A program made the position numbers and the translations under genes. The notes beneath the pieces were generated by a model. That model was given only the letters and a program-made list of their open reading frames with translations, did no database searches and was not told the origin of the DNA. From a virus (lineage: Duplodnaviria > Caudoviricetes): a stretch of 64,000 nucleotides of DNA. Location: positions 10,167 through 74,166 of the IMG/VR virus record IMGVR_UViG_3300033463_004353, one strand, 5' to 3'. This document shows, in pieces, positions 48,501 through 63,283 of the stretch (within the stretch, counting starts at the first letter, position 1; each line of letters opens with the position of its first letter).

Positions 48501-51500
48501 GTCTGCTAGTAGCAATAAGTGCTGCTATATTGGTTGTTGGAAGCATTTCAATGAAGATAACTGGACCTTTGGCACCATTAGAATTTGCAGGACTATTGTC
48601 AGGATTTGTCTTAGTAATGTCTAAGGCAATGGGATTGATGAGTAAAGCAATTGGCAAGAATCCAAAAGTCTTAGCTGATGCCGCTGTATTAGGAACTTTT
48701 GTGTTGATGACTTCTATATCATTGTCACTAGGTGCTATGTTTGTTGCTAAGTATGGTTTAGAGCCGGTCATCCAATATGGTGTGATACTACTAGCATTTG
48801 TTGGTAGCATGTCATTAGTTCTTGGATTGCTTGGAGCATTGTCTCCAGCATTGCTACCAGGTGAAGCTGCAGCTATAGGTCTTGGAGTAGCATTGTTGGC
48901 TTTGACAACGTCATTGACAATACTTGGCACATTGTTTGATGGCAAGCTAAACATCGAAGCTATAAACAATAACATATCAGCAATAGAAGAAATAGTATCT
49001 GTCGGTTTGCTATGGATGTTTGTCAAACTATCAATTGTTGGATTGCAAGCTTCACTTGGAATATATGGTGCATTAGCGATATCTGGTGCTTTATTAGCAT
49101 TAAGCACAACATTCAAGATAATAGATATCATGTTAAAAGAAACAGATGTTGAATCTAACTTTGATAAGCTAAATGACATAATTGGCTTATCTATGGCATG
49201 GTTCTTTGAAAAACTTATCCTTCTTTTACCATTTGCCATTCTTGGCGGTACATCTGCATTGCTGATAAGCACTACTTTGCTAGCTCTATCTGGATCATTG
49301 AAGATTGTTAGCTTGATTATGGAAGACTATAGTAGTGTAAAATCTGGTTTAGACAATTTGACAAACTTGATATCAGGCAAAGATTCTAACCTTTGGGCAT
49401 TATTTGGAAAGATAATAGCATTAGGAGCTGTTTCTATATTAGCTAGACCGGCAGTAAGGAGCTTCTCTTCAACAATGAAAATACTCTCAAATGCAATGGT
49501 GTCTATAGCTGAAGGTGAAGAGGCTATCAACAAGATGAACATATCTGACAATTCTGAAGAAGTTATCAAGAATATCAATGCATTCATAAGCATTGGAAAT
49601 GGAATAGACAAAGATGGATTAGATAAGCTAAAGAAGAATATTCGTCGTGTAAGATATCCAATTAGTGAGTTGTCAACAGTGATGATGCTAGTTGGAAGCA
49701 CCGTAAAAGACTTAGCTGACATGAAAGTAGCTATAGCATGGGACAAGAATGGAAATGCAATAAGATGGAGGCAGATAAGCCAGTCAGATTTTGATCTAGC
49801 GAAGGATAACATAAAAGACATATTGAACAATACATTTGAAGGCCTGAGCAAAGCATTAGAAGTGATAGATGATTCTAAGAGGGCAAGCTTGTTGAAGAAA
49901 GTCATCAACTCATCATTGAAGATTGGTGATATGATATCTAACATTGCATTAGGGATATCTAACATGGCTATCTTGTCAGTTGCCAATTCATTTGACCAAA
50001 CAACTGGAAAGCCAACATCATTCAAGAGATTGTCTGAAAGCCATTTCTCAGAAGCAAGACAGAACATAAAGCAAATATTGACAAATACATTTGATGCGTT
50101 GAAAGAAGTATACAATGACTTAGACAATTCTAATCTGCTAGACAGTGATTTCTTGGGCCTTGGCAGCACACCAATAGACAAGATAGTGAATGCATCAATG
50201 AATGTCTCAAACATGATTTCTGCAATTGTTGAATCATTGTTCTATATGGCATCTATGGAATTCCCTGTATATGAGAATGGCAAAATTGCTAAATACCAAA
50301 AGATTGGTGCTAAAGAGTTTGATGATGCTAATGCTAATATATTGAAAATAATAACTGACCAATTTGACACATTAGAAAGCCTAGCACAAAGGCCTGATTT
50401 GAAGAATGCTTTATCATGGGACACATGGTTCACTAGGAGTGATGCCGGAAAGATAATAAAGATGGCAATGGACATGTCTTCTATGATATCAAATTTGGCA
50501 ACTGGAATATCAATGATGGCTACTATGCAAATAGCTAACAGATGGGATCCAAAGACAGGAAAGCCGATTGGATATGTTAAAGTGACAGACGCTGAAATGA
50601 TAGAAGCATCCAACAATGTTGTCAAGATAATCAATGCATTGCTTGGTGGTGGTGAAAATGGAATAAAGTTCAATAAAATATCTTCTAACAAAGAAACAAT
50701 AAAGAAAGCTATAGAATCTGTCAACCCAATAAGTGAGATGATATCATCTTTAGCCGATGGGATTGTCAAGCTAGCATCCGGACAGGTACCTAATAAATGG
50801 AACAATGATGGAGTTGCTATTGGATATGACACTATCAACAGTGAAACATATGTAAAGATAGGTGAAGTTGTTGGAGACATCATAACAGCTGTTCCAAAAG
50901 CTTTGATTGAATTGGCAAATGATAAAAAAAATAAAAAATTTTTTGATGGTGGTAATAATCCACAGTTGAAAGACATAATAGAATCAGTAAGTGGAGTGAC
51001 TGAAATAGTTTCAAGCATTGCTGATAGTGTTGTAAAGTTTGCTCAAGGAAAGATTCCAGTATACAAAGATGGAAAGATAATAAGGTATGATGATATCAAC
51101 TTTGGTGATGAAAATGGAAAGGGTGGAATAGTAGAAAAACTATCTACAGTCATTAGCTCTATAATAACAGCAACAAGTGATGCTATAATCAACTGCTATA
51201 ATGCTAATGACAAGATGTTCTCAACAACAGGTGAAAACACCCCATTCTCAACAGCTGTAAATGGAATATCATCATCAATATCTATTGTGTCAAATCTAGT
51301 GTCTGCAGTAGTGTCATTAGGCAATGCACGACTTCCGAAGAGAATTGATCCAAAGACAGGCAATGTACTTGAGTATGAAGATTTAGGAAGCAGTGTAGAC
51401 AAAATACTAGAGAATTTGAAGAAGATTATTGATACAGGAGATGGCAAAAGCTTGTTGATGACTATTCCTACAATGATCAGCACGTTGTATGAAAAAATAA

Positions 51501-53101
51501 GTACTGGTAATTTAAATAAAAACATTGATGAAGTAAAAAATTTCATTAATCCGTCTATTGAAATGATTTCATCTGTTGCTAAGACAATTGTAGACATTTC
51601 TTCTTACAAGATACCATTAGGGTTTGACAAAGATGGCAAAGCAAATGGATATGAGGTATTTAACCAAGCTCATATAGGAAAAATGAAAGAAAATGCATTG
51701 AACATGATAAATGCATTATCAGGAATATTCAATGATGTAAATTTGAAAACAAATGTAGAAAATGCTTTGAAAAACTCTGATGATATCAACAAGAACATTA
51801 CAAGTATAATCAACAACTTTGAAATAATAGTAAGTGGATTGAAAGGATTGCATGAAGACTATTCTGGAACTATTGCTAAGATATTAGAATATAATAGATC
51901 TAAAGACAAGAGTCTTGCTAATGACATAGTCACGGTGATAAACTCATTTAGCAGTGCACTTAGTGATGAGTCAAAGATAAACATGATAAGCAAGAGCATA
52001 TCAGACAAGATAAGTGATGGGATTCTATCAACTAATGATGCTATAAGGAACATCATCTCAACATTGTCTAATGTTGCATCTATGTATTCTGAATATGACT
52101 TTGAGTCAATGACAAGTCGTTTGAATGCTCTCGACCCAGAAAAGATATTGCAAATGGTTTCTAAGATATCAACTATGATATCTAATGCGGACTCAACATT
52201 GCCGGCTTATGCAAGGATAGACAACATACAGAAATTTATAAACCAGTCGTATAAAGTAAAGAACTTAATAGAAAGCTATATAGATGTTGCAAACTCTATT
52301 GGGAACTTGAGAGATGCTATACAAAAGAACAACATAACATTAACAGATGTTGACATGAAGGTAGAAGATCTGCCAATGTCTGTAATGGGAGCGATAAAGT
52401 CTAAGATATCTAAGATAAGAGAAGACATAAACTCAATTGGATACTCTTCTAAAGGCTTAGGCATGATGGCATCTGACTTAGACAGGCTCTCTAGAGCTAT
52501 AAACAACACACCAGTTGACATCGATAAGAAGATAAATAGCTTGAAGCAATCATTAGACAACATATCTAAGATAGATGAGACAAACATAGCAGAATTCAAC
52601 AATCAAGTAGAAAGCATTGACAAGTATGTGAATACAGTGAATAGCATTGATATCAAAAAGGCTAACTCAATGGCAGAGATAGCTAGCCAAATGAGATCTT
52701 ATGTTACACAACTATCTAAGATGGACAGTGTTGCAGACATGCTATACAAGCTATCTAGAGTGCTAGAAGAAGTGAACTCAAGCTTGCATGAGTCTAAGGA
52801 CGTTGTAGAAGGAGCTAGAATGATACAAGACAAGAGAACTGAGAAGATGAATGAGTCTATCAAGACGATAAAGGAGATAATGGATAAAGAGCTCATTGTC
52901 AGGGTTTCATCTGACACAACAGAAAACACTGATGACTACAATAGCAATTCAATCTCAACTGCAACACCAGAATACAATAATTTAATTGGAACTGAATATG
53001 GTAAAGGTGCCACACCAAACAGCAATGACAACAATTCATTAAGCAAACAGAAAAACAAAGCAAATGAAGCAAAAGCAAGAGGAGGAAAATCTATAAAATG
53101 A
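45503..53101 (+). CDS. Tape measure protein
   Basis: 2532 aa, helical, central 64-aa hydrophobic repeats, followed by a tail-tube-like gene; TTATTTTTAA at 45443-45452. Confidence 0.75.
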   Translation: MDGKNKKQLVKKSVQTEKRELATPTGLGSFDKYLRGESTRDSLFITSAITGTSGDQVTNAISAMKSNKRSILGANQSLYAMISDIKESIAKMDIDNAIKGIKDAIGGMAKATNVSDKPKESINYSGILESINQEISGIRSSIDNSIIKVIEAINAERENINIIEKVDARISKDSLSEIKNAIENNFKETNGKIKVTVDGLNEKDIDALRKFSEMNMNALGVNAEWVSTLVEILSKTKPLDMSNSNKNLAQIAEILDNTAWIFSKPRVMLLNAIMAKGGSIENLVGKNGAMSGLFEKLKTIKLDEKMDFTNTIDALKDVSGLMDKVIKMMPYFILINKTSMAKTVLDSINGIKDIIDASDIWKDGSEYPKIKKSISDTNEAIDIIMSTVKSIQGYSIAKSFLDDGKINQIRELFEHNIKSLLREISSNKKDYTVEKNTTTQIKNSIEDIISIVDKISTQKGNDIDKVKKTLIGIASLFGISVDGKKMDINIMKNLFQSLGSLKDVSKQQSAKIDSIANQMESIKTILESINSISELKKIDKDKIISNISNYFETINEIYKEIDSKIDKIYEISSKVDGLKAANEKIKEGMESINDVAVKTQSSTKEIEDAQVNIEGMTKFIIASTIVLSVGALFVMLGGGKFIKASIEFAATLSLFEALVLLPVITTGPLLKKAMPLGNQMNGFILTCVGSMMIGALFVMLGGGKALKASLMFGIALMAFETLVIAPFILFGKFMPTMKANLEGFEYFMLACVGIMTIGALFMMLDNGTFVKNAINFGITLMIFEAMVLAPILLFSHISKDAKNSLDEMVDFMIASAAIMTIGALFMMIKNGAYAKYALEFGLTLMAFEALVLAPFLVMSLLAKDALKGAKLFSGLTIVTTAIMTIGALFMMIKNGAYAKYALEFGATLMTFEALVLAPFLVFGLFAKKAKANAIELLGLIAVSATILIVGSLTYEYLDGVESPLAFTILLSAFIAGMTHVFNWVSGNLSRTTINELKEFSLLVAISAAILVVGSISMKITGPLAPLEFAGLLSGFVLVMSKAMGLMSKAIGKNPKVLADAAVLGTFVLMTSISLSLGAMFVAKYGLEPVIQYGVILLAFVGSMSLVLGLLGALSPALLPGEAAAIGLGVALLALTTSLTILGTLFDGKLNIEAINNNISAIEEIVSVGLLWMFVKLSIVGLQASLGIYGALAISGALLALSTTFKIIDIMLKETDVESNFDKLNDIIGLSMAWFFEKLILLLPFAILGGTSALLISTTLLALSGSLKIVSLIMEDYSSVKSGLDNLTNLISGKDSNLWALFGKIIALGAVSILARPAVRSFSSTMKILSNAMVSIAEGEEAINKMNISDNSEEVIKNINAFISIGNGIDKDGLDKLKKNIRRVRYPISELSTVMMLVGSTVKDLADMKVAIAWDKNGNAIRWRQISQSDFDLAKDNIKDILNNTFEGLSKALEVIDDSKRASLLKKVINSSLKIGDMISNIALGISNMAILSVANSFDQTTGKPTSFKRLSESHFSEARQNIKQILTNTFDALKEVYNDLDNSNLLDSDFLGLGSTPIDKIVNASMNVSNMISAIVESLFYMASMEFPVYENGKIAKYQKIGAKEFDDANANILKIITDQFDTLESLAQRPDLKNALSWDTWFTRSDAGKIIKMAMDMSSMISNLATGISMMATMQIANRWDPKTGKPIGYVKVTDAEMIEASNNVVKIINALLGGGENGIKFNKISSNKETIKKAIESVNPISEMISSLADGIVKLASGQVPNKWNNDGVAIGYDTINSETYVKIGEVVGDIITAVPKALIELANDKKNKKFFDGGNNPQLKDIIESVSGVTEIVSSIADSVVKFAQGKIPVYKDGKIIRYDDINFGDENGKGGIVEKLSTVISSIITATSDAIINCYNANDKMFSTTGENTPFSTAVNGISSSISIVSNLVSAVVSLGNARLPKRIDPKTGNVLEYEDLGSSVDKILENLKKIIDTGDGKSLLMTIPTMISTLYEKISTGNLNKNIDEVKNFINPSIEMISSVAKTIVDISSYKIPLGFDKDGKANGYEVFNQAHIGKMKENALNMINALSGIFNDVNLKTNVENALKNSDDINKNITSIINNFEIIVSGLKGLHEDYSGTIAKILEYNRSKDKSLANDIVTVINSFSSALSDESKINMISKSISDKISDGILSTNDAIRNIISTLSNVASMYSEYDFESMTSRLNALDPEKILQMVSKISTMISNADSTLPAYARIDNIQKFINQSYKVKNLIESYIDVANSIGNLRDAIQKNNITLTDVDMKVEDLPMSVMGAIKSKISKIREDINSIGYSSKGLGMMASDLDRLSRAINNTPVDIDKKINSLKQSLDNISKIDETNIAEFNNQVESIDKYVNTVNSIDIKKANSMAEIASQMRSYVTQLSKMDSVADMLYKLSRVLEEVNSSLHESKDVVEGARMIQDKRTEKMNESIKTIKEIMDKELIVRVSSDTTENTDDYNSNSISTATPEYNNLIGTEYGKGATPNSNDNNSLSKQKNKANEAKARGGKSIK

Positions 53102-53919: not shown

Positions 53920-53945
53920 AGAGGTGGAGCTCAAGCTCCACCTCT
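53920..53945. terminator. Bidirectional terminator overlapping the U32 stop codon
   Basis: AGAGGTGGAGCT-CA-AGCTCCACCTCT. Confidence 0.8.
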
Positions 53946-55022
53946 TATTCTCTTGTTGTAGAAGTCTCTACAATATGTGCAAGTCTTTCCACACATCTGA
54001 TTCTCACACTCAAAGTTCTTAGTGAACCAATGATCTAAGAATCCATCTAGCTTGTCATTTGGTATGTTGTCAACCAACTCTTGCTCTGACTCTTCTTTCC
54101 CATTGTAGATTGTCTCAAGTGGCTTCCACAAGCCAATGAGGTTTCCTTCATGCTTGCCTTTCATGTAAGACTCAAGCACACTCACTAGATATGGTGTGCC
54201 ACCAGTACGACCGGACACCTTGAAGTAGTCTATCCCAATAGAGTTGTAATAGTGCAAGTCTTCCGGGCGTATCCATCTGCTACGTAGCCATTGCTCTTGA
54301 TTGCCATTCCTGCTTGACATGCAATATTGCATTGGATAGTTGTTATACAGCATTGACTCTTCTTTAGTCTTGCATGTCGCATGACAAAGGTAGCAAGAGT
54401 CACGGTATATGCAATGTGTAGCATAGTCTGAGCTAGCATTGTAGCAGAACTCATTTGCAAGCAACTCAAGAATCAATCCATTCTCATTGCAATAGTTTGC
54501 AGCATTGACCAAGAAGTCTTTGCTTCTGTTCTTCAATATGCTGTTGCAGAACTTGTTCACCCCAAGAGTCTCATGCAAGTATCTCATCTGAGTTGGTGTG
54601 TCAATGTGGAGTATGCAGCTTGCCTCAAGCTCAATGTCACTGACTTCTCTTATGAACATTGCTAGCATTGGGTTTGCAAATGTTATCCTGTACACACCAA
54701 TGCCCTCTAGCCACTTCACATAGTCTTGCACATGATTCTTGTTAGCTACAAGATTTGGCTTAGCCATGAATGGTTGTATAGAGTTAAGCACAACATTGAA
54801 CAATATGCCATGGTCAAGGCTCAGCTTGACATACTTCTCAAAGTCTTTGTCACTCATGTCTGGAAGCCTCCAATCAGGCCTTGCTGTCATAGGTGCTGCA
54901 GAGCTAGGGCTGCCAAAGAACTCTCTTACTACAGACTTGCCATCATACTTTTCATTCAACTCAGACACTCTGTCAATCAATTTCCAGTCAAAATTACAAC
55001 CTACTTTGAATTGGTTTATCAT
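53931..55022 (-). CDS. Peptidase-U32-family Fe-S protein (UbiU/TrhP/RlhA-like putative hydroxylase)
   Basis: LLANEFC...HCIYRDSCY Cys cluster; WIRPEDL...GIDYFKVSGRT (U32 D-x-(L/F)K-x-x-GR); C-terminal Cx4Cx3Cx2C. Confidence 0.75.
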   Translation of the reverse strand: MINQFKVGCNFDWKLIDRVSELNEKYDGKSVVREFFGSPSSAAPMTARPDWRLPDMSDKDFEKYVKLSLDHGILFNVVLNSIQPFMAKPNLVANKNHVQDYVKWLEGIGVYRITFANPMLAMFIREVSDIELEASCILHIDTPTQMRYLHETLGVNKFCNSILKNRSKDFLVNAANYCNENGLILELLANEFCYNASSDYATHCIYRDSCYLCHATCKTKEESMLYNNYPMQYCMSSRNGNQEQWLRSRWIRPEDLHYYNSIGIDYFKVSGRTGGTPYLVSVLESYMKGKHEGNLIGLWKPLETIYNGKEESEQELVDNIPNDKLDGFLDHWFTKNFECENQMCGKTCTYCRDFYNKRIRGGA

Positions 55023-55045
55023 ATCTTATAGATGTATTTTTTTAA

Positions 55046-55684
55046 TTAAACTAATCTAGCCATCTCATAGTATGTGAAAATTATCTCACTAAGTGCTCCA
55101 ATGCCTCCATTTGTGGTTGATGTGTAGTTTGCATATTCTCTCACTTGCTTAGGTGCATTGTTTGTTGTGAATGCATAGTCTGCTCTAGACATTGCAGGGA
55201 TGTCAGAGAATGAGTCACCAATGAACACAATGTCAACATCTATCTTGTTGAAGTAGCTCTCATCTCTGATTTGCATTACCAGCATCTCACGCTCTTTCCA
55301 GTTCATCTTAGACTTAGCAATGTTGTTGCTCTCAGAGACCGAGTCAATGAGCTTGTCAATGCGTGCAGATGTTATTGGAAACCCTTCTTTGTCATCTGTG
55401 ACAAATATGATTTGGTCTTTGCAAACATCAACAGCAAACTGTATTGCTTCTTTGTCATATGACCCATAGCTCTTTGCATACTTGCCATCTTTGTCAAAGT
55501 AGCTCCTGCCATCTGTCATCACACCATCACAATCTACTATGAATATAGTCTTCTTGTGCCTAGTTTCTAGCTTGTTGTCATCATAGAACTTCTTGAACCA
55601 AGTAGTGTTAGTGTCAAGCTCCTTCTTCTCATCTCTCCAATTGTCATTTCTCATCTCTTTCTTCAATGATACTATTTTGCTCAT
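55046..55684 (-). CDS. KdsC-like HAD sugar-phosphate phosphatase (start may be 55654)
   Basis: VDCDGVMTDG, FIGDSFSDIPAM, GGIGALSE. Confidence 0.85.
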   Translation of the reverse strand: MSKIVSLKKEMRNDNWRDEKKELDTNTTWFKKFYDDNKLETRHKKTIFIVDCDGVMTDGRSYFDKDGKYAKSYGSYDKEAIQFAVDVCKDQIIFVTDDKEGFPITSARIDKLIDSVSESNNIAKSKMNWKEREMLVMQIRDESYFNKIDVDIVFIGDSFSDIPAMSRADYAFTTNNAPKQVREYANYTSTTNGGIGALSEIIFTYYEMARLV

Positions 55685-56699
55685 TCACGCTCTCTTCATG
55701 TATGGCTCCCCAGATAGCCTCAACAAGTGTGTCTGGTATCTTCTTCATGTCTTTCAATGATTGCACAAGCTGTATGAACCTCTCAGGTTGGAAAACTGGC
55801 ATGTTGCTCTCTTTCTTCAATTCACCAATCTTATTTGTCACTTCAAACCTTGACTTCACAAGCTCAAGTATTTGCCTGTCAATGCTGTCAACATCATCTC
55901 TGTATTTCTTCAGCATCACTTCATTTGTGTTCTGCTCCATCACTAACACTCTGTGCAGCATCTCATTGAGGTCACTTGGCTTCAATTGCTGTGAAGCATC
56001 TGTCCATGCCATGTCTGGGTTGCAATGGCTCTCAATGATGAATCCATCATATCCATACATGCATGCTTTCTGGCATATCTCTTCAACGTACTCACGCTTG
56101 CCAGCAATGTGTGATGGGTCACAAAGCATTGACACATCTCTGTACTTGAGCTTCATCTGCAAAGCATATTGCCATAGTGGGTTGTTGCGATAGTCAGTGT
56201 CTTTGTAAGCTTTGAATCCACGATGTATGAATGCAACATTGTTGATGCCCATAGCTAAGAGGCGAAGGTAAGCACCTTCCCACAAGTCAATGTCAACACA
56301 TGATGGGTTCTTCACCATCACCATTGTTGTGTTGTCAATCTTTGCTATTGCCTCTGCAATCTCTTGGACAGCAAATGGATCTGATGTTGTACGTGCGCCA
56401 ATCCATATGGCATCCATCTTGTATTGCAATGCAAGCTTCACTTGCTCTTCATTGGCTACTTCACAGCACATCTTGACACCTGAATGCTCTGTCTTGTACT
56501 CAAGCATCCACTTGAGTGCTATCTCACCAAGCCCTTCAAAGCCACCAGGCTTAGTCCTTGGCTTCCACACACCCCCACGTATGAATGTGATGCCATTCTC
56601 AACCAATTGGTCACATGTCTCAAACAACTGCTCTCTTGACTCAACTGAGCATGGTCCAGCTATTATAGTCTTATTTGTTTCCATATCATCAATCACCAA
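55644..56699 (-). CDS. Bifunctional DAHP synthase (type I-beta) / chorismate mutase, Bacteroidota type
   Basis: IAGPCSVES, GGVWKPRT, WIGART, VKNP, IHRGF, CDPSH, IESH; C-terminal AroQ-like YRDDVDSIDRQILELVKSRF...K...PVFQPER. Confidence 0.93.
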   Translation of the reverse strand: MVIDDMETNKTIIAGPCSVESREQLFETCDQLVENGITFIRGGVWKPRTKPGGFEGLGEIALKWMLEYKTEHSGVKMCCEVANEEQVKLALQYKMDAIWIGARTTSDPFAVQEIAEAIAKIDNTTMVMVKNPSCVDIDLWEGAYLRLLAMGINNVAFIHRGFKAYKDTDYRNNPLWQYALQMKLKYRDVSMLCDPSHIAGKREYVEEICQKACMYGYDGFIIESHCNPDMAWTDASQQLKPSDLNEMLHRVLVMEQNTNEVMLKKYRDDVDSIDRQILELVKSRFEVTNKIGELKKESNMPVFQPERFIQLVQSLKDMKKIPDTLVEAIWGAIHEESVNEQNSIIEERDEK

Positions 56700-57267
56700 T
56701 ATATGTCCTTGTTATGAAGTCAACTAGCAAGCTCAGCCTAGTTGTGCTTGCCTTGAGGAACACAAGCTTGTCAGCATTGCATTCGGCATTAATGTTGCTG
56801 CAATAGAGGTGGTTGAGCTCATTGAACTCATCTTCACTATATTGTGCAACATACTCATTGCCTTCAACCATCTTTATCCTATCTATGTACTCTTTGTAGC
56901 TCTCAAACAAGATGATGTAGTTATGTACTTCCATGCCAACTGGGAGCTTGCTTAGCTTAGGCTTTACTGTATGCTTTCTGTTGAACAATGTTGAATACAC
57001 TTCATCTGATATCAAGAATCTAGCCATTATGATTGTGTCATTTTGCATTGCTAGCTTCTCTATCTCTTCTATCTGTGCATCTATGAACTTGTCAAGCCAT
57101 GACAAGAAGTCATCTTGCTCTTTGTCATACTTTGGCATGCCTTCAAGGTTGTTCCTCATCACTACTGTCTTTGGCATCAAGCTAGATATCTTCTCTAAGT
57201 CATCTAGCAATGAGTCTTTGCCAGCACGATCAAACCCTTCTACAACTATGAGTCTCTTCTTCTGCAT
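56689..57267 (-). CDS. Deoxynucleoside monophosphate (thymidylate-type) kinase
   Basis: LIVVEGFDRAGKD P-loop; MARFLISDEVY resembles the TMPK DR motif region. Confidence 0.7.
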   Translation of the reverse strand: MQKKRLIVVEGFDRAGKDSLLDDLEKISSLMPKTVVMRNNLEGMPKYDKEQDDFLSWLDKFIDAQIEEIEKLAMQNDTIIMARFLISDEVYSTLFNRKHTVKPKLSKLPVGMEVHNYIILFESYKEYIDRIKMVEGNEYVAQYSEDEFNELNHLYCSNINAECNADKLVFLKASTTRLSLLVDFITRTYIGD

Positions 57268-57273
57268 ACATAA

Positions 57274-57282
57274 TTAAAATAG
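57274..57282 (-). promoter_or_regulatory. Representative copy of putative early/middle motif CTATTTTAA
   Basis: Same or near-identical motif upstream of genes starting at 7879, 14513, 25035, 27665, 29877, 44293, 57267, 60674. Confidence 0.5.
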
Positions 57283-58818
57283 TCATTCTTCAAGTGCACC
57301 TCTCAGCACCTTCATCCCATACTCATATGCTATGTTAGCTTTCATGACATCTTGAGATATGTATCCAGCTAATGCTATCCATATCACTCCAAGCAAGACT
57401 CTGTAGACTTTGTTGTCTAGGTAGTCTATGCCATAGAACCACTTGAGCCTCTTTGGTGAGTCAATCCCATACACTTGTGGATTCAAGTTGAATCCATCAT
57501 ACCCATCAAGGCAATATAGCAGCTTAGCATATTCATAAGGTTGCCAGCCATATAGAGTTGTCTCACCAAAGTATCCGCGAGGATCTATGAACTTCACTTT
57601 GCCATTCTTTGGATTCACCATCACATTGCTGCCATTCAAGTCACCATGGCATATGCAGTACTTCACTTCTTGGCCTTTCTCTATGCTTGACAGATAAGTG
57701 TATGCTTCTTCTAGCAATGCTCTCATCTCTTCTCTGTCATAGTTGACAAGCATGTTCTTGATGTTGTCACAACGCTTCAGCACTTTTGTGACAACCTCAT
57801 ATCTCAAGTCACACTCAAACACATTCCTTGGCACCATCTTGTAATGCTTAGCAAGCTTGTTCAAGCTACGGCGAATACGCTTGTACACACTCATCACATC
57901 TGCATCATCATGTGTCTTGATGTAGTGCTCTAGTGATGTCCAGTTCTCTAAGAACTGCATCTTGAATGCATTCTTGTCTCCATTCATCCCATCATATATC
58001 TCTGGCACTATCTTGTCATAGTCTTCAACCTCACTCTTCAATGACTCATACCACTGATACTCTTTCTGTATGATTGGGTAGTACTCTTTGACAATAGCAC
58101 GCTTCACAAGCACAGGATACTTGTTGTCTTTGCATTCAATCTCTATGCTGTTGAAGAACCTACACTTCATAGAAGACTCTATCTGGTTTGCATTCTTTAT
58201 GATGCTCACATACTCTTCTTTAGTACGATACTCAACTATGTAGTGGTTTATGTCTTCATGCTTCTCAAACTCACTTGCATGCAATGATATGGCATCTATC
58301 AAGTCATAGTTAGGCATCTCATCACACTTGATAGTAATTATGTCTCTCAAGTGCTTTATGAAGTATATTCCTGGGATATTGCCAACTTCTTGATTGCCAT
58401 CATGATCTCTTGTAGGGCGTATCATGCCACTATCATCAAACACATAACGGTAAGATCCACTCTGGCAGACAATAGTGTTCTTAGTGAACTCCATCCTGTC
58501 ACGAATCTCCAAGTCTGACCACACAAAAAGCACATCATCTTGTGGTATCTTGTCAATGACACTCATTATTGTGTTGTAAGACCCATTAGAGTTGCTTGTC
58601 TCAACTATGTGTATGTCTAAGTTGTTCACTCGTACATAGTCGGCAACCATCTTGGCATACTTTGAATTTATGATTATAGTTATTGTGTCTTTGTTGAATA
58701 CTTTTGACATCTCTTCCAACAGTGAGTTGTAGAATCTAGTTGGAAGCAAGACTTTAGGGAATATTGAGAGGTCACGATATCTTGTGCCATTTCCTCCTGC
58801 TACAATGACTACATTCAT
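57283..58818 (-). CDS. Sugar nucleotidyltransferase fused to an APH/choline-kinase-like domain
   Basis: N-terminal VAGGNGTRY...PKVLLP; C-terminal HGDLNGSN...FIDPRG...YEYAKL. Confidence 0.82.
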   Translation of the reverse strand: MNVVIVAGGNGTRYRDLSIFPKVLLPTRFYNSLLEEMSKVFNKDTITIIINSKYAKMVADYVRVNNLDIHIVETSNSNGSYNTIMSVIDKIPQDDVLFVWSDLEIRDRMEFTKNTIVCQSGSYRYVFDDSGMIRPTRDHDGNQEVGNIPGIYFIKHLRDIITIKCDEMPNYDLIDAISLHASEFEKHEDINHYIVEYRTKEEYVSIIKNANQIESSMKCRFFNSIEIECKDNKYPVLVKRAIVKEYYPIIQKEYQWYESLKSEVEDYDKIVPEIYDGMNGDKNAFKMQFLENWTSLEHYIKTHDDADVMSVYKRIRRSLNKLAKHYKMVPRNVFECDLRYEVVTKVLKRCDNIKNMLVNYDREEMRALLEEAYTYLSSIEKGQEVKYCICHGDLNGSNVMVNPKNGKVKFIDPRGYFGETTLYGWQPYEYAKLLYCLDGYDGFNLNPQVYGIDSPKRLKWFYGIDYLDNKVYRVLLGVIWIALAGYISQDVMKANIAYEYGMKVLRGALEE

Positions 58819-58871
58819 TAGATAAACTTCTTATAAATTGTGTTTAGATTGTTTCCTATTTCATGTCATAT

Positions 58872-58918
58872 CACACATATCTAGACAAGTATCTGGACAT
58901 CTTGTCTAGATATGTGTG
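58872..58918. repeat. Perfect 18-bp inverted repeat with 11-nt loop
   Basis: CACACATATCTAGACAAG (58872-89) / CTTGTCTAGATATGTGTG (58901-18). Confidence 0.9.
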
Positions 58919-58942
58919 TGTTATGAATTCTATCTCTTACAG

Positions 58943-59608
58943 TCACTTGCCAAAGTTGTCCAGATACTTGTCCATGCCAAGCAGCTTGCCATTGTTGCCA
59001 CCAAGATGGTTGTACTTGTAGTTGTCTACCAAGTCTTGGCATTGCTCAAACACATCTACTCCAAGGATGTCAAGCACAAGCTGTGTTGTGTGGATTGATA
59101 GTGATGGTATCAAGTCACGTGAGTCTATCTCAACCTTTGCCAATGTCTTGCTCACACCACGTGGAGTCAATACATAGTCATATCTCTCTTTCAGTGACTC
59201 ATATTCTCCATCACATGTCAAGAAAAGCCCAACTGTTGTCAAGTTCTCTATCTTCTTTGATGCTTTCAAGTCAGATATCACATCTACAAGCTTCTCCATC
59301 TCTTTTGTCTTGCCAGACTTTGATATGAAGACTATCACTTTGTCTTCATCTTTGTCCATCAGTGTGCCAAGATCACCATGCAATGCATGTGTGCAATCTA
59401 GTGATGATGCTTTCAAGCCCATTGAGATGAATGTCTTCACTTCTTTCTCACATATGTACCAGTTCTTGCCAACACCAGAGAAGATGAACCTCATTTTGTA
59501 AGGGTTAGCTAAGCACCGTTGCAAGAGGCTTGCATAGTCTTGTGAGTCAACTATAGCTTCTATTGTGCTGCTAGCTATAGCCATCTTTGTCCTAATGGTC
59601 TCATCCAT
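58943..59608 (-). CDS. SIS-domain sugar-phosphate isomerase (KdsD/arabinose-5-phosphate isomerase-like, no CBS domains)
   Basis: FSGVGKN, ALHGDLG, FISKSGKT, IPSLS, NHLGG. Confidence 0.85.
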   Translation of the reverse strand: MDETIRTKMAIASSTIEAIVDSQDYASLLQRCLANPYKMRFIFSGVGKNWYICEKEVKTFISMGLKASSLDCTHALHGDLGTLMDKDEDKVIVFISKSGKTKEMEKLVDVISDLKASKKIENLTTVGLFLTCDGEYESLKERYDYVLTPRGVSKTLAKVEIDSRDLIPSLSIHTTQLVLDILGVDVFEQCQDLVDNYKYNHLGGNNGKLLGMDKYLDNFGK

Positions 59609-59609
59609 G

Positions 59610-60674
59610 TTATTGTATGTTGTCTAAATATTTCTCTAATTCTCCAATTGTCTCAACCATCTTCTCATGGGGTATCTCGCATGTTGCGGCATGGTTTATG
59701 AACTTGGTGTCTTCTAAGTATGGCACCATGCAATCAACATAGTCAAGGATTGTGTAATATGTATCGCGATCTTTGCTCACTTGTATGAAATGCTCATTCA
59801 CATAGTCTGAGCACCCAATGCTACTAGCAATCTTGCCTAAGTCACAATTGTTTGGGTTTGTGTACAATACTGCAAGACTCTTGCCATTCTTGTGGTGTGT
59901 AATGACATCTAGTATCTCCTTGAACTTGTATCCCATGTCTGTCAGACGAAATGGTAAGAACAGCACATGATGCCCTTTGCTTGTGAACTCCTGCAATGAT
60001 GACATGACTGATTCATCCAGCTTGTAAGAGAAGAATGGCAAGCTTCTGTCTATCAGTGTGCTTATCATGATTGTGTTGCACATTGCCACATTAGTGGTTG
60101 ACTTGAGCATATCTATGTACTTCTCTTGGTCTTCAGATGCTATGATTGCATTCTTCACTCTTGAGAATATGTACTTGTCTATTGACTTGTGTGGCTCTAA
60201 GAAGTCTCTTGTCTTCTCATCTGTTGCACATACTGGGCACCAGTATATGACATCTAGCCAGCTCAGCTTGTCTAGTGCCATCAACACAACAAACTGCGCT
60301 TCAGCTATGATAGTGTCATATGAGCTGCCATCTACTAAATCAATGATCTTTGATGCAAACCCAATATCCCGTTGCACTTTTGATGACTCAACTATCAAGC
60401 TAGTCTCTTTCAAGCATATGCTGGTGTTGTTCATCTCACCGATCTTTGCAACTGCTTGTGAGAACCACTCATAGTCATTGCCAGATAGTGGACAAGCTAT
60501 GTCTAAGTGCTTGAAAGACTTGATGTGTGAGAATGTTGACAACATACGATTGACATTTCCATCTGCTTTGAAGTTCAATGCTTTTGTCTTGTAGTCAAAG
60601 CACGAGTATATTGGTATGTACAGCACTCGCTTGCCATGTATCAAGTTAGACAGCTTTATATATTCATCTTTCAT
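59610..60674 (-). CDS. Putative glycosyltransferase (possible DNA sugar transferase, assigned mainly by context)
   Basis: First gene of the operon; IPIYS...ADGNVNR, FLPFRLTDMGY, PYLED blocks; alternating beta/alpha pattern compatible with GT-B; no unambiguous signature. Confidence 0.45.
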   Translation of the reverse strand: MKDEYIKLSNLIHGKRVLYIPIYSCFDYKTKALNFKADGNVNRMLSTFSHIKSFKHLDIACPLSGNDYEWFSQAVAKIGEMNNTSICLKETSLIVESSKVQRDIGFASKIIDLVDGSSYDTIIAEAQFVVLMALDKLSWLDVIYWCPVCATDEKTRDFLEPHKSIDKYIFSRVKNAIIASEDQEKYIDMLKSTTNVAMCNTIMISTLIDRSLPFFSYKLDESVMSSLQEFTSKGHHVLFLPFRLTDMGYKFKEILDVITHHKNGKSLAVLYTNPNNCDLGKIASSIGCSDYVNEHFIQVSKDRDTYYTILDYVDCMVPYLEDTKFINHAATCEIPHEKMVETIGELEKYLDNIQ

Positions 60675-60884: not shown

Positions 60885-62522
60885 ATGCCAAAGATATATC
60901 TGTCAGACATTGACACCATAAAGAAGTTCATGCTAGAAGATGCTGATGAACAGCAAGAGAGCATAGAAGCCGCAAGTGATGTTGACTCACAGCCTATAGA
61001 AGACCCATTGCTCAACAGTCCAAGCAAGTCACAGCCACAGCCACCATCTGAAGACAACACTATAGAAGACAAGCCATACTTCTTCAAGACAATACTCTTC
61101 TTCACCAATGAGAGAGACTCTTCAAAGAACAAGACACTGAAGAACTTAGAAGAAGCAATAGAAGGCAAGAACATCGACATAGTTGTGCTTGTTTCAGATG
61201 AAGTCCACTACAAGGCTATGGATGACAAGATTATGATAAATGACAACAAGACAAAGTATGTCATAGACAAGCAATCTAACATTGACACAATAGCTATTGT
61301 GAGGCTTGGTGCACAAGATAGTGAAGAGTGTATGGAGTGCATAAAAGAGATACAAGACTGGGGACTGTTTGTGCTGAATCCAATACAGCCAGCTAAGAGA
61401 GCTTCAAACAAGTATCAGTCATGTGTCTTGATGGAGAGATATGGCATTCCACAGCCTAAGTTCACATTGTTGACAAAGAATGATGTGAAAGATGGAATGG
61501 ACTCACTCACCAAGAAGCTCAAGCTGATCTACAAAGATGCTGACAAGAATGAAGATGCTGAGAACTATGAGTATGTTGTGAAGAAGCTTGATGGCCATGG
61601 TGGCACAGGTGTGTTCATGGTCAATGGCAAGACTATACTTGCCATACTGCAAGCTATGTTCTCAATTGATGAAGACTTGGAGTTGCTATTGCAGAAGAAG
61701 CAAGATGCAGATGGTGGAGACATTCGTGTGCATGTGCTTACCATGAGGACTAGCCAAAAGATACTTGCATCAATGAAGCGAAAGAAGATTGGCAAAGACT
61801 TCCGTAGCAATATATCACTTGGTGCAACCGCAGAGCCTGTAGAACTGACAAGAGAGCAAGAAGAGATCGCACTAAAAGTTGCCAAGATATCAGGCATGCC
61901 ATGGTGTGCTGTTGATATAATGCCATTAGTCAAAGGCAGTGATGATGACTTCAAAGAAGTAGGATACAATGTTGTCTTAGAGTTCAATGCTAGCCCCGGA
62001 ACTGATGGCATATCAGAAGTGATAAAGGAGAACTTCTGTAAGATATTGCTAGACAATATAAATGACATAAATGAGCTCACACTAGCACCAAAGTCAATAG
62101 GATATCTTGAAGACATCACTATAACAATGGAAGATGAGGAGACAATCACATTTGAGGCAAAGCTTGACACTGGCAATGGTGCAAAGGCATCTACTATTGG
62201 GTGTGATGAAGTGAAGACGATTGATGACAATGTGATTGCAAAGATTGGTGACAAGCAATACTACTTCAAGAAGAGTGGCAAGTCAAAGGCAATAGTTGGC
62301 CAAGTGACTGAAGAGAGAGTTGTTGTTGAAGTGCCTTGCATACAGATAGGGACAAGGAAGCTTCTCAATGCAGAGTTTGCATTAGTAGACAACCGTAACA
62401 AGAAGCAGAAAGTTTTGTTGAATCGTGACATCATGTCAAAGCTTGCTTACATGATAAACCCATCTAAGTCACACTTGATTGAAGATGAGTTCAGTGAGTT
62501 GAAGCAAAATGCAAAGAAATGA
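60885..62522 (+). CDS. RimK-like ATP-grasp ligase fused to a C-terminal RimB-like (retropepsin-type) protease
   Basis: ASNKY, YVVKKLDGHGGTGV, DIRVHV, FRSNISLG, AVDI, LEFNASPG; C-terminal AKLDTG...EERVVV...EFALVD...VLLNRD. Confidence 0.85.
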   Translation: MPKIYLSDIDTIKKFMLEDADEQQESIEAASDVDSQPIEDPLLNSPSKSQPQPPSEDNTIEDKPYFFKTILFFTNERDSSKNKTLKNLEEAIEGKNIDIVVLVSDEVHYKAMDDKIMINDNKTKYVIDKQSNIDTIAIVRLGAQDSEECMECIKEIQDWGLFVLNPIQPAKRASNKYQSCVLMERYGIPQPKFTLLTKNDVKDGMDSLTKKLKLIYKDADKNEDAENYEYVVKKLDGHGGTGVFMVNGKTILAILQAMFSIDEDLELLLQKKQDADGGDIRVHVLTMRTSQKILASMKRKKIGKDFRSNISLGATAEPVELTREQEEIALKVAKISGMPWCAVDIMPLVKGSDDDFKEVGYNVVLEFNASPGTDGISEVIKENFCKILLDNINDINELTLAPKSIGYLEDITITMEDEETITFEAKLDTGNGAKASTIGCDEVKTIDDNVIAKIGDKQYYFKKSGKSKAIVGQVTEERVVVEVPCIQIGTRKLLNAEFALVDNRNKKQKVLLNRDIMSKLAYMINPSKSHLIEDEFSELKQNAKK

Positions 62523-63283
62523 GATATATCATAGAATACATATCAGAGAAGCTGAAAGTAGACAAGCATGTATCTGTTGCATATTCTTGCAAGCCTAAGA
62601 CAAAAGATGAGCTGATCAATATATTGTCAGATAGGCTAGAGAAAGACAAAGATGCTGACTTGAATGACATTGATGTCTCATTAGTTAAAGACATGTCATA
62701 CTTGTTTGATAGGCTAGAACCGCATGATATAGACATATCACAATGGGATGTGTCTAATGTAAAGAATATGGGAGGGATGTTCTTTGATTGTAGAGGGTTC
62801 AATGCAGACTTGTCTAGTTGGGATGTCTCTAATGTTGTTAAGATGTATTCTACGTTTGAGAATTGCAAGAATTTCAACTCAGACCTCTCACAATGGGATG
62901 TGTCTAATGCAGAGGATATGAATAGCATGTTCTACAATTGCAGCAAGTTCAACTCAGACCTCTCACAATGGGATGTGTCAAATGCTATAGATATGCATTT
63001 TATGTTCTACAATTGCAATAGCTTCAACTCAGACCTCTCACATTGGGATGTGTCTAGTATCAAGGACATGTCATTCATGTTTGCTAATTGTGATAGCTTC
63101 AACTCTGACCTCTCACATTGGGATGTGTCTAATGCTATAGATATGCGGTTGATGTTCTACAATTGCAAGAGATTCAACTCTGACTTGTCTAGTTGGGATA
63201 TGTCTAAAGTCAAGTATATGGACTCTATGTTTTATAGTTGCTCATCACTAAAAACAAAGCCTGCTTGGTATAAGAGCATATGA
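62519..63283 (+). CDS. DUF285/BspA-type 25-aa repeat protein
   Basis: Seven FNSDLSxWDVSNxxxMxxMFxxC-type units. Confidence 0.9.
   Translation: MRYIIEYISEKLKVDKHVSVAYSCKPKTKDELINILSDRLEKDKDADLNDIDVSLVKDMSYLFDRLEPHDIDISQWDVSNVKNMGGMFFDCRGFNADLSSWDVSNVVKMYSTFENCKNFNSDLSQWDVSNAEDMNSMFYNCSKFNSDLSQWDVSNAIDMHFMFYNCNSFNSDLSHWDVSSIKDMSFMFANCDSFNSDLSHWDVSNAIDMRLMFYNCKRFNSDLSSWDMSKVKYMDSMFYSCSSLKTKPAWYKSI

Follow-up and report, generated by a model that had tools for sequence, protein, structure and literature searches.

The window analysed here is a stretch of 64,000 nucleotides, covering positions 10,167 to 74,166 of a viral IMG/VR record (IMGVR_UViG_3300033463_004353; Duplodnaviria, Caudoviricetes). 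The source contig of this record has a length of 74,166 bp, is about 26% complete and carries baseplate, Ig-domain structural and helicase genes. Positions 53931-56699 of the window contain three intact open reading frames on the minus strand, encoding a DAHP synthase-chorismate mutase fusion, a HAD phosphatase and a Cys-rich protein of the U32 family. These genes belong to an operon of seven (53931-60674, minus strand), of which they form the 3' half and which is composed as follows:

59610..60674, minus strand: glycosyltransferase-like protein, 354 aa, gene 1 of the operon (phrog_3891 match)
58943..59608, minus strand: SIS-domain sugar-phosphate isomerase, arabinose-5-phosphate isomerase-like (phrog_5670, TIGR00393)
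57283..58818, minus strand: bifunctional sugar-1-phosphate nucleotidyltransferase and kinase, 511 aa (Pfam NTP_transferase and kinase models)
56689..57267, minus strand: thymidylate-kinase-fold nucleotide kinase, 192 aa (Pfam Thymidylate_kin, phrog_761)
55644..56699, minus strand: DAH7P synthase (type I-beta, KPRT) with C-terminal AroQ chorismate mutase, 351 aa (Pfam, NCBIfam)
55046..55684, minus strand: HAD phosphatase, KdsC/YrbI-like, 212 aa (Pfam Hydrolase_3, TIGR01670)
53931..55022, minus strand: U32-family Cys-rich protein, 363 aa (Pfam Peptidase_U32, phrog_5757)

The operon structure can be observed directly from the junctions. The stop codon of the kinase lies 4 nt ahead of the ATG of the fusion gene at 56684, which would yield a protein of 346 aa, or overlaps with its TTG start. 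The HAD frame, whose start is likely the ATG at 55654, overlaps with the stop codon of the fusion gene, and only 23 nt separate it from the U32 gene. An FNT channel gene is also encoded in the window.

By sequence the product of 55644..56699 is a type I-beta DAH7P synthase (DAH7PS) joined to an AroQ chorismate mutase (CM), from which catalysis of the reaction of E4P and PEP to DAH7P is inferred. Pfam DAHP_synth_1 matches the whole barrel with 125.4 bits (cut-off 25.5; residues 11-251, about 55947-56669) and CM_2 matches residues 267-341 with 64.9 bits (cut-off 27; about 55677-55901). In an alignment to the P. furiosus DAH7PS 1ZCO (127 bits) the GPCS, KPRT, DPSH, E-x-H and D motifs are all kept. 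We take the Cys in GPCS, the His in DPSH, the Glu in E-x-H and the Asp to be the four metal ligands, and KPRT to be the phosphate-binding motif in the form of DAH7PS and not of KDO8P synthase (KDO8PS). NCBIfam models for DAH7PS score 163, 157 and 151 bits, all under their equivalog cut-offs, compared to 53 bits for KDO8PS. A preliminary description of this DNA had claimed an intact KPRT-type DAHP synthase with C-terminal CM two genes upstream of a Cys-rich U32 protein in the same operon. The Pfam, NCBIfam and 1ZCO results bear out the first part, and the fusion gene is indeed the second gene upstream of U32 with tight junctions.

The CM domain matches the chorismate mutase structure 1YBZ (E 1.9e-8). 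The equivalents of residues R11, R28, K39, R51, S84 and Q88 of EcCM are invariant in seven phage fusions; when E. coli PheA and TyrA are aligned as well, R11, R28, K39 and S84 remain invariant, Q88 nearly so, and the window protein keeps R51. Glu52 of EcCM is not kept, being replaced by Phe in the window CM and by an aromatic residue or Leu in the other phage fusions. Since L005, the only Bacteroidales-type homologue that was aligned, has Tyr at this position, the change may be specific to the lineage and not inactivating. The closest cellular homologues of the phage fusion belong to Bacteroidota (41-47% identity), and in a tree the phage genes nest within a Bacteroidales-dominated clade on long branches, suggesting long residence in phages. 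Bacteroidota fusions of DAH7PS with a C-terminal AroQ domain have been studied in Porphyromonas and Prevotella and are inhibited by prephenate. They have the same domain order and length as the phage protein, which shares the aromatic residue at the Glu52 position with L005. The phage gene differs in being located in a DNA-modification operon and not among aromatic amino-acid genes.

As judged by sequence similarity, the operon is homologous to the arabinosyl-5-hydroxycytosine (arabinosyl-5hoC) DNA-modification cluster of phages RB69, DLP3 and HY126. In RB69, ORF045c-055c surround the U32 gene gp50 and encode a SIS isomerase, a nucleotidyltransferase, a kinase, a HAD protein, a thymidylate synthase (TS) homologue, a glycosyltransferase and a further kinase. 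This cluster makes arabinosyl-5hoC (Lee et al. NAR 2026, PMC13326640). The hydroxylation of dCMP is performed by the TS homologue gp48, which binds flavin and uses O2 and together with a kinase is enough for aerobic 5hodC formation in E. coli, so that U32 is dispensable there; gp50 was left unassigned with the tentative label 'sugar or heterocycle reductase' (Lee et al. 2026, PMC13326640). Like the window, the clusters of RB69, Acinetobacter phage DLP3, E. coli phage HY126 and Serratia phages contain an A5P isomerase, a kinase/nucleotidyltransferase, a HAD phosphatase, a DNA glycosyltransferase and a thymidylate-kinase-like enzyme, and RB69 and other Enterobacterales phages have the orthologous U32 gene in common with the window (49% identity). 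In contrast to the RB69 type, the window operon includes DAHPS-CM, and the ThyA-homologous flavin/O2 hydroxylase is absent from the contig: neither PF00303 nor RB69 gp48 found a match in the 74-kb contig. Because only about a quarter of the genome is covered, a TS-type hydroxylase encoded elsewhere cannot be excluded.

The remaining genes show the same kinship. The protein encoded by 59610..60674 has no Pfam match, but phmmer relates it to the glycosyltransferase adjoining U32 in nearly all related loci, and these relatives match RB69 gp46/gp47, the arabinosyltransferase 1 of Lee et al. 2026, making it a candidate DNA base glycosyltransferase on sequence grounds. The SIS protein matches phrog_5670 'arabinose 5-phosphate isomerase' (E 3.8e-27) and TIGR00393 KpsF/GutQ (E 1.3e-13), and phmmer hits to homologues of RB69 gp55 point to it as the gp55 counterpart. 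In the product of 57283..58818 an NTP_transferase domain (residues 3-107) is followed by matches to choline-kinase/APH/EcKL-type kinase models (310-413); with a phrog_4098 score of 243 bits and phmmer matches to both RB69 gp52 and gp53, it is by analogy the counterpart of RB69 gp52:53 and HY126 AfhE. The kinase 56689..57267 (Thymidylate_kin, E 1.1e-4; phrog_761, the family of RB69 gp45, E 3e-12) is a candidate kinase for the modified dNMP and the putative gp45 counterpart. The HAD protein scores below the cut-off for the KdsC subfamily TIGR01670 (E 2.6e-13). It is of KdsC type, whereas RB69 gp51 belongs to a different HAD subfamily; by analogy to gp51 and AfhF it is the probable sugar-phosphate phosphatase of the arabinose branch, and its homologues are found in the same operon in phages without any DAHPS. 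The identity of the sugar itself is inferred.

One Pfam family is common to DAH7PS and KDO8PS, which leaves room for a reading of the operon as a Kdo-like branch. Here the aldolase would be of KdsA type and act with the SIS protein (KdsD), the HAD protein (KdsC) and the nucleotidyltransferase (KdsB) to supply the glycosyltransferase with an activated 3-deoxy-ulosonic acid, in which case the CM would be regulatory or irrelevant. Indeed, the models for KdsC and KDN-9-P phosphatase give the best scores for the HAD protein, and those for KpsF/GutQ/KdsD the best for the SIS protein. However, the KPRT motif and the difference of 163 to 53 bits argue for DAH7PS, and five genomes at least 97% complete encode SIS, nucleotidyltransferase-kinase, KdsC-like HAD, glycosyltransferase and U32 proteins without any gene of the DAHP_synth_1 family. 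The nucleotidyltransferase is not KdsB-like; its fusion partner is a kinase of the anomeric type, an arrangement also seen in the UDP-arabinose enzyme AfhE. Moreover, with L039 as the single exception, the phage aldolases are joined to a CM whose catalytic residues are intact, a standalone CM replaces the fusion elsewhere, and in L010 and L011 the remaining shikimate pathway is located alongside. Given the DAH7PS scores, the DAHPS-less operons and the CM fusion, a Kdo pathway is not supported, and we regard it as very improbable.

The U32 protein matches Pfam Peptidase_U32 with 28.3 bits (cut-off 22.4) over residues 98-158 only and phrog_5757 with 413.7 bits. It is 49% identical to RB69 ORF050c and orthologous to gp50. 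An AlphaFold2 model (pLDDT 93.3) displays the U32 TIM-barrel fold, with the U32 protein 5D88 as the best PDB match in Foldseek (E 1e-7). Of its 21 Cys residues, nine are invariant or nearly so across 49 relatives; C193, C204, C210, C234 and C351 are invariant, C339, C344 and C348 nearly invariant. In a comparison by hhalign to the four E. coli U32 paralogues, the phage protein is nearest to RlhA (82% probability, E 1e-5, 207 columns including the U32 motif). C210 aligns with C176 of RlhA and C204 falls one column off C169, the spacing being C-x5-C compared to C-x6-C. Together with the C-terminal Cys cluster, the two Cys of the U32 motif seem to parallel the four Cys essential in RlhA, a four-Cys Fe-S site being inferred from sequence alone. 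The U32 protein is probably a [4Fe-4S] enzyme; both Fe-S binding and dependence on prephenate are inferred, and the evidence, namely the adjacency of CM, is indirect.

RlhA (YdcP) is needed for 5-hydroxycytidine 2501 of E. coli 23S rRNA and depends on prephenate and on an Fe-S cluster, with essential Cys in the U32 motif and the C-terminal cluster. The best profile match among the E. coli paralogues is thus to an enzyme performing C5 hydroxylation of cytosine, the chemistry proposed for the phage protein. The phage protein, however, has about half the length of RlhA, lacks DUF3656 and shows an identity of about 21%, and its target is presumably a deoxynucleotide rather than rRNA. TrhP and TrhO provide a dual prephenate/O2 pathway to ho5U34 in tRNA, in which TrhP needs prephenate; the U32 route is the only one retained in anaerobes, and facultative organisms have both (Sakai et al. 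2019, PMC6599085). Profile similarity of the phage protein to TrhP is weak (E 2e-3). The U32 proteins UbiU and UbiV hydroxylate ubiquinone independently of O2, bind [4Fe-4S] via a four-Cys motif and use prephenate as oxygen donor as determined by 18O labelling (PNAS 2024, PMC10990095). For RlhA and TrhP this donor role is proposed, while for UbiU/UbiV it is shown by labelling. UbiU/UbiV differ from the phage protein in their lipid substrate and in forming a heterodimer acting with UbiT, and profile similarity is negligible.

CM_2 is present in 23 of 45 U32-carrying IMG/VR records, about half being without CM, and in 22 of these 23 it is located within about 1.3 kb of U32. This adjacency is maintained over at least five gene orders: U32-CM-TS in T4-like phages, U32-CM-GT in jumbo phages (GT, glycosyltransferase), U32-DAHPS/CM-GT in L008 and L016, kinase-DAHPS/CM-HAD-U32 in the window, L002 and L013, and GT-DAHPS/CM-U32 in L010 and L011. 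Shewanella phage Thanatos-2 has U32-CM. In other phages, standalone CMs stand in for the fusion. L010 and L011 additionally encode, about 3 kb beyond their GT-DAHPS/CM-U32 genes, shikimate kinase, shikimate dehydrogenase, DHQ synthase, chorismate synthase and a DHQase-EPSPS fusion; the genes listed for this region include none for an enzyme that consumes prephenate. Among 50,697 isolate phage records a small CM occurs in 54. Considering the 40 matches listed out of these 54, the carriers are T4-like Enterobacterales phages and Thanatos-2, and the CM adjoins 'peptidase' and TS genes where neighbours are annotated. Phage CMs fall into two sequence types, one with R51 kept and an aromatic residue in place of E52, the other with E52 kept and no R51, suggesting separate acquisitions.

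These patterns bear on whether DAHPS-CM is a generic auxiliary metabolic gene that lifts Phe/Tyr synthesis of the host and lies next to U32 by chance. PHROGs does class phage DAHP synthases as auxiliary metabolic genes, and the gene originates in Bacteroidota hosts, which use it to make aromatic amino acids. Yet no locus contains a prephenate dehydratase, prephenate dehydrogenase or aminotransferase, so the phage-encoded pathway ends at prephenate. Incidental adjacency is also hard to reconcile with its persistence across the different gene orders and both CM types, with the rarity of CM in isolate phages otherwise and with the absence of phage-type U32 genes near the bacterial DAHPS-CM homologues. 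We therefore consider this explanation unlikely, if less so than a Kdo pathway.

The distribution of the two types of hydroxylase was compared with the oxygen lifestyle of the hosts. Among isolate records, 374 encode the TS-type hydroxylase, 57 of them from Acinetobacter phages and 20 from Rhizobium phages. U32 is present in 222 records, with only Enterobacterales names among the ten groups listed. Four whole genomes of phages with aerobic hosts contain neither U32 nor CM; the whole genome of Thanatos-2 contains both. Any ThyA-family gene is missing from 11 metagenomic U32 records with a completeness of 90% or more, of which four have terminal repeats. Phages of strict aerobes thus carry the TS-type only, phages of facultative anaerobes TS-type and U32, and the 11 near-complete metagenomic phages U32 only, although these patterns are confounded by phage phylogeny. 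ThyX flavoenzymes, found in 11 of 20 TS-less records and unlinked to the cluster where positions were compared, could conceivably be hydroxylases. The distribution mirrors that of TrhP and TrhO, with the difference that the O2-dependent partner is a rhodanese and the target tRNA in the latter, as opposed to a ThyA-fold flavoenzyme and DNA precursors in phages. In the metagenomic non-T4-like subset (22 records) anaerobic NrdD is present in nine and class I NrdB in none. The host of the large phage studied here was probably an anaerobic gut-type bacterium, which is inferred only from the Bacteroidales-type DAHPS-CM, NrdD in relatives and the FNT channel in the window.

Which substrate U32 acts on (dCMP, dUMP or DNA), and hence its product, is likewise inferred. 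U32 might use prephenate on tRNA or rRNA, on cytosine already in DNA, or on a sugar or heterocycle, without making 5-hydroxy-dCMP. All characterised U32 enzymes of nucleic acids act on RNA polymers, gp50 bears the tentative reductase label (Lee et al. 2026, PMC13326640), and RB69 gp48 by itself already accounts for aerobic 5hodC. Small complete genomes speak against such a role: in five phages with genomes of 41-49 kb and a completeness of at least 91%, kinase, glycosyltransferase and U32 form a contiguous minimal module, while NTP_transferase, ThyA-type gene and CM are all missing; four of the five also lack ThyX. U32 thus remains tied to a DNA-type glycosyltransferase and a dNMP-kinase-like gene in the absence of sugar-activation genes, which argues against a function in sugar synthesis and for an acceptor of the glycosyltransferase made at the nucleotide level. 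No other candidate for making this hydroxyl acceptor was found in these genomes. Another substrate is therefore doubtful, though less remote than the two explanations discussed above, and action on polymeric DNA is not excluded.

We propose that the operon 53931-60674 is an O2-independent version of phage glycosyl-5-hydroxycytosine hypermodification, with DAHPS-CM feeding a prephenate-dependent U32 enzyme. No biochemistry or genetics exists on any phage U32, and we estimate the probability of this reading at roughly 60%. U32, probably a [4Fe-4S] protein, would hydroxylate a pyrimidine deoxynucleotide at C5, with dCMP as the most likely substrate and oxygen taken from prephenate. The DAHPS domain would raise carbon inflow to the shikimate pathway and the CM would turn chorismate into free prephenate, so that prephenate does not become limiting as the cytosines of an entire genome are modified. 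The thymidylate-kinase-like enzyme may then phosphorylate the modified dNMP for incorporation. Isomerase, kinase/nucleotidyltransferase and HAD phosphatase are predicted to make an NDP-pentose, which is NDP-arabinose in characterised relatives, and the glycosyltransferase would add the pentose onto the new hydroxyl in DNA. That the virion DNA contains 5-hydroxycytosine bearing an O-linked sugar is inferred, as is the donor role of prephenate.

The preliminary description had argued that DAHPS-CM is not a generic auxiliary metabolic gene and supplies prephenate for genome-scale hydroxylation by U32 without O2. Comparative evidence supports this inference, namely the U32-CM adjacency, the shikimate pathway as far as chorismate in one phage, the standalone CMs, the operon without an O2-dependent hydroxylase, and the distribution of TS and U32 in relation to host oxygen. 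The further statement of the description that the gene bypasses feedback control by the host is conjecture; Bacteroidota fusions are themselves subject to inhibition by prephenate. It had also suggested to examine co-occurrence of the two genes across phages split by host oxygen, where both the linkage (22/23) and the oxygen-dependent distribution emerged. An inactive CM, a U32 protein without Fe-S cluster or a lack of phylogenetic linkage would have spoken against it: the catalytic residues of CM are conserved, as far as sequence can tell, the Cys motifs are conserved with Fe-S binding itself inferred, and the linkage is present.

A literature search found no paper describing O2-free hydroxylation of DNA bases by phages via prephenate and U32. 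For the family as a whole, we find it about evenly balanced whether phages of anaerobes rely on U32 as sole cytosine C5 hydroxylase, acting on free dCMP with the prephenate donor secured by their own CM, DAHPS-CM or whole shikimate pathway, while RB69 and other phages of facultative hosts retain U32 beside the ThyA-type enzyme as an aerobic/anaerobic pair. If the proposed function is true, a U32 hydroxylase would for the first time be seen to target DNA and to act on a small soluble substrate.

Region 53931-56699 on the minus strand contains three ORFs, all intact and joined by overlaps or short gaps:

55644-56699, minus strand: DAH7P synthase fused to a C-terminal chorismate mutase (DAHPS-CM), 351 aa; Pfam DAHP_synth_1 125.4 bits, CM_2 64.9 bits
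55046-55684, minus strand: HAD phosphatase, KdsC-like
53931-55022, minus strand: U32 protein, 363 aa; above the Peptidase_U32 cut-off; phrog_5757 414 bits

The preliminary description of these genes was thus borne out. They come from a 74-kb viral contig that is about 26% complete and also encodes baseplate, Ig-domain structural and helicase proteins. The three ORFs make up the 3' half of a group of seven co-directional genes at 53931-60674. This array starts with a glycosyltransferase-like protein (GT, phrog_3891), followed by an SIS protein resembling arabinose-5-P isomerase, a nucleotidyltransferase fused to a kinase and a kinase of thymidylate-kinase fold, and then continues with DAHPS-CM, the HAD phosphatase and the U32 protein. 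Just upstream of this modification operon, at 60885-62522 on the plus strand, ATP-grasp genes (RimK / glutathione-synthetase-like) were found. Their synteny is kept in distantly related jumbo phages (loci L008, 6313-9110, and L012, 4920-7737), which have two adjacent ATP-grasp genes, the larger one also bearing an NlpC/P60 domain. For the tandem paralogues at 62519-63283 and 63280-63969 (plus strand), matches fall in one common domain of very large phage proteins (phrog_17273, phrog_22899, phrog_3649). Giant ORFs at 45503-53101 (plus strand, 2532 aa), 37056-41810 (minus strand, 1584 aa) and 32306-35950 (minus strand, 1214 aa) had no PHROG match at E 1e-5.

Compared with NCBIfam, DAHPS-CM scored 151-163 bits against DAH7P-synthase models, but only 53 bits against KDO8P synthase. 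It keeps the GPCS, KPRT, DPSH, E-x-H and Asp motifs when aligned with 1ZCO of P. furiosus. The CM domain retains equivalents of R11, R28, K39, R51, S84 and Q88 of E. coli chorismate mutase (EcCM); the position of Glu52 is occupied by Phe, and by Tyr in the sole Bacteroidales-type homologue aligned (L005). Cellular homologues were obtained by an alignment-based scan of genome contigs, a single-sequence scan having given none, and the nearest belong to Bacteroidota with 41–47% identity. In a tree from a quick IQ-TREE run only, the fusions from phages group together (aLRT 89) on long branches within a Bacteroidales-dominated clade (aLRT 95). The best cellular match (L059, CAVCSC010000004.1, 47% identity) lies on a contig binned as Lachnospiraceae and groups with Prevotellaceae, so the contig may be mis-binned or the gene horizontally transferred. 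MT837090 (‘Bacteriophage sp.’), whose DAHPS-CM is 42% identical, was not informative: it groups with bacterial Bacteroidales sequences, and no U32 homologue was detected on this 11.6-kb contig. A member of the formate/nitrite transporter (FNT) family is also encoded in the window, at 12822-13370 on the minus strand (Pfam PF01226, 64.9 bits), which is unusual in a phage. Together with the Bacteroidota affinity of DAHPS-CM this hints at an anaerobic, fermenting host, for which there are no habitat data.

The prevailing view of U32 proteins is that they are hydroxylases dependent on prephenate. To our knowledge, direct activity of the E. coli paralogues RlhA and TrhP has never been shown. For UbiU/V, prephenate has been established as oxygen donor by 18O labelling, and in vitro assays were still awaited as of 2024 (PMC10990095). 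Searching PDB sequences with the phage U32 protein by phmmer returned nothing useful. An AlphaFold2 model based on a 49-sequence alignment reached a pLDDT of 93.3, and fold search gave the U32 protein 5D88 as best PDB match. When profiles were compared against all four E. coli paralogues, RlhA ranked first (82% probability, E 1e-5, 207 columns), followed by TrhP (E 2e-3) and then UbiU and UbiV. RlhA is an rRNA cytidine C5 hydroxylation factor that requires C169, C176, two C-terminal cysteines, Fe-S biogenesis and prephenate. In the phage protein C210 is aligned with C176, C204 is one column off C169 and a C-terminal cluster C-x4-C-x3-C-x2-C is conserved.

We compared 45 U32-carrying IMG/VR records, 25 of which are estimated to be at least 90% complete. 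When whole records were searched, 23 of the 45 had CM_2, and comparison of coordinates placed it at most about 1.3 kb from U32 in 22 of these 23. The gene order differs between groups:

T4-like phages: U32, small CM of 78–132 aa often overlapping the U32 stop, ThyA homologue
Jumbo phages of 245–295 kb: U32, standalone CM, GT
Loci L008 and L016: U32, DAHPS-CM, GT
Window, loci L002 and L013: kinase, DAHPS-CM, HAD phosphatase, U32
Loci L010 and L011: GT, DAHPS-CM, U32
Locus L039: U32, DAHP synthase without CM domain

About 3 kb downstream of the DAHPS-CM/U32 pair, L010 and L011 carry a near-complete shikimate pathway on a phage contig (14314-19311), consisting of DHQ synthase, shikimate kinase, a DHQase_II-EPSP synthase fusion, chorismate synthase and shikimate dehydrogenase. 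Since this gene set contains no enzyme that consumes prephenate, the pathway encoded by the phage ends at that compound. Among isolate phages a small CM is confined to 54 of 50,697 records, the matches listed being T4-like phages of Enterobacterales and Shewanella phage Thanatos-2. Where neighbors are annotated it adjoins ‘peptidase’ and TS genes, and in Thanatos-2 the gene upstream of CM is an orthologue of U32 (51% identical). At the positions of EcCM R51 and E52 the CMs of T4-like phages differ from the fusion and jumbo-phage CMs, a sequence difference suggesting that U32 phages acquired CM at least twice. The U32 phages without CM, about half, presumably rely on that of the host; CM also seems to be missing from RB69-type Mosigviruses and Klebsiella phage Marfa. 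RB69 ORF049c (locus L001, 5233-5472, about 78 aa) was considered as a CM and rejected, having no Pfam match and forming its own family, phrog_8601; moreover, four T4-like loci contain both a homologue of its product gp49 and a separate CM. Homologues occur in L036, L038, L042 and L052, and in several T4-like phages the phrog_8601 protein sits between U32 and CM or the ThyA homologue. One viral record, G004, is the sole relative with DAHPS-CM (locus L139, 8298-8924) far from U32, at 136 kb; the gene adjoins a dUTPase-family gene, again in a neighborhood of nucleotide metabolism.

The earlier inference that DAHPS-CM serves as prephenate source for the neighboring U32 protein is supported by the conserved adjacency of U32 and CM, the standalone CMs and the pathway stopping at prephenate; the chemistry is inferred. 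A generic role of DAHPS-CM in aromatic amino-acid synthesis does not explain these three features.

A DNA search with the array region matched the U32 gene of RB69-like coliphages. In RB69, ORF045c-055c comprise the same functions as the window array, grouped around the U32 gene ORF050c. Glycosylated 5-hydroxycytosine in phage DNA was described in 2025–26, and the RB69 cluster was reported to produce arabinosylated 5-hydroxycytosine, the hydroxylase being the flavin-binding ThyA homologue gp48, for which O2 is the oxygen source (Lee et al. 2026, PMC13326640). The U32 protein gp50 appears there only as a table label, ‘sugar or heterocycle reductase’, and the text mentions neither U32 nor prephenate nor chorismate.

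In five phages of 41–49 kb (at least 91% complete) a thymidylate-kinase-like gene, GT and U32 are contiguous; no nucleotidyltransferase, ThyA-type gene or CM was found in these small phages. The layout corresponds to hydroxymethylase, kinase and glucosyltransferase of T4, with U32 as the base-modifying enzyme, and by this analogy argues that U32 may create the acceptor for GT at the nucleotide level rather than serve sugar synthesis. In other loci the GT-like protein is fused to a thymidylate-kinase-like domain (550–606 aa; L003, 2594-4411; L014 and L051, 5240-7060; L020, 5360-7012), which supports a functional link between the two genes. It is possible that U32 acts on another substrate, such as RNA, polymeric DNA or a sugar. 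With its KdsC-like neighbor, the DAHPS-like enzyme could also be assigned to a Kdo-type sugar branch. This is not supported, since five genomes (at least 97% complete) contain isomerase, nucleotidyltransferase-kinase, KdsC-like HAD and GT but lack a gene of the DAHPS/KdsA family, and the nucleotidyltransferase of the window bears a kinase domain like the UDP-arabinose enzyme.

Searches with PF00303 and RB69 gp48 found no ThyA-type hydroxylase in the window's incomplete contig or close relatives. A ThyA-family gene is present in 14 of the 25 near-complete U32 records, mostly T4-like genomes, and absent in 11, four of which have direct terminal repeats (294, 283, 49 and 44 kb). The other flavin-dependent thymidylate synthase, ThyX, occurs in 11 of 20 TS-less records, far from the modification cluster where coordinates were compared; it cannot be dismissed as hydroxylase in these records. 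In four small, essentially complete U32 genomes neither ThyA-type gene nor ThyX was found. Among isolates, the ThyA-type hydroxylase occurs in 374 records, of which 57 are from Acinetobacter and 20 from Rhizobium phages, and U32 in 222, where the ten groups listed all bear Enterobacterales names. U32 and CM are both absent genome-wide from Acinetobacter phages Lazarus and Minot, Rhizobium phage RL38J1 and Tenacibaculum phage PTm1, and both present in Thanatos-2. In Lazarus a HAD gene directly abuts the ThyA homologue at the exact site of the U32-CM pair of Enterobacterales phages. Thus, phages of strict aerobes have only the O2 enzyme, those of facultative hosts have both, and a third group has only U32. 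The latter are probably phages of anaerobes; of the 22 metagenomic records that are not T4-like, 9 have the anaerobic class III reductase NrdD and none has class I NrdB. The split mirrors the bacterial distribution of TrhO and TrhP (Sakai et al., PMC6599085). As it is confounded by phage phylogeny, the pattern is suggestive and no statistical test.

In the proposed mechanism DAHPS-CM would increase shikimate flux and provide free prephenate. U32 would oxidize C5 of dCMP (or dUMP) and take up the hydroxyl that prephenate releases, as has been proposed for UbiU/V (PMC10990095). The kinase would then pass the modified nucleotide to replication, and sugar branch and GT would decorate the new hydroxyl. 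Our data comprise gene content, conservation and distributions only; every chemical step is inferred.

We found no paper tying U32 or prephenate to phage 5-hydroxycytosine, but cannot exclude a discussion in He et al. 2026 (Nat Chem Biol) or Mahler et al. 2025 (Cell Host Microbe). Since the known 5-hydroxycytosine hydroxylase needs O2, it has been left open how gut phages modify DNA without oxygen. If true, the proposal would join glycosylated 5-hydroxycytosine phage DNA with U32 prephenate chemistry, explain RB69 gp50 and, through a phage U32 protein acting on dCMP and supplied with prephenate by the phage itself, provide the U32 field with a simple soluble substrate. The phage would rewire the shikimate pathway for DNA chemistry instead of amino acids, and evasion of restriction and CRISPR defences by such phages could vary with the oxygen level during infection.
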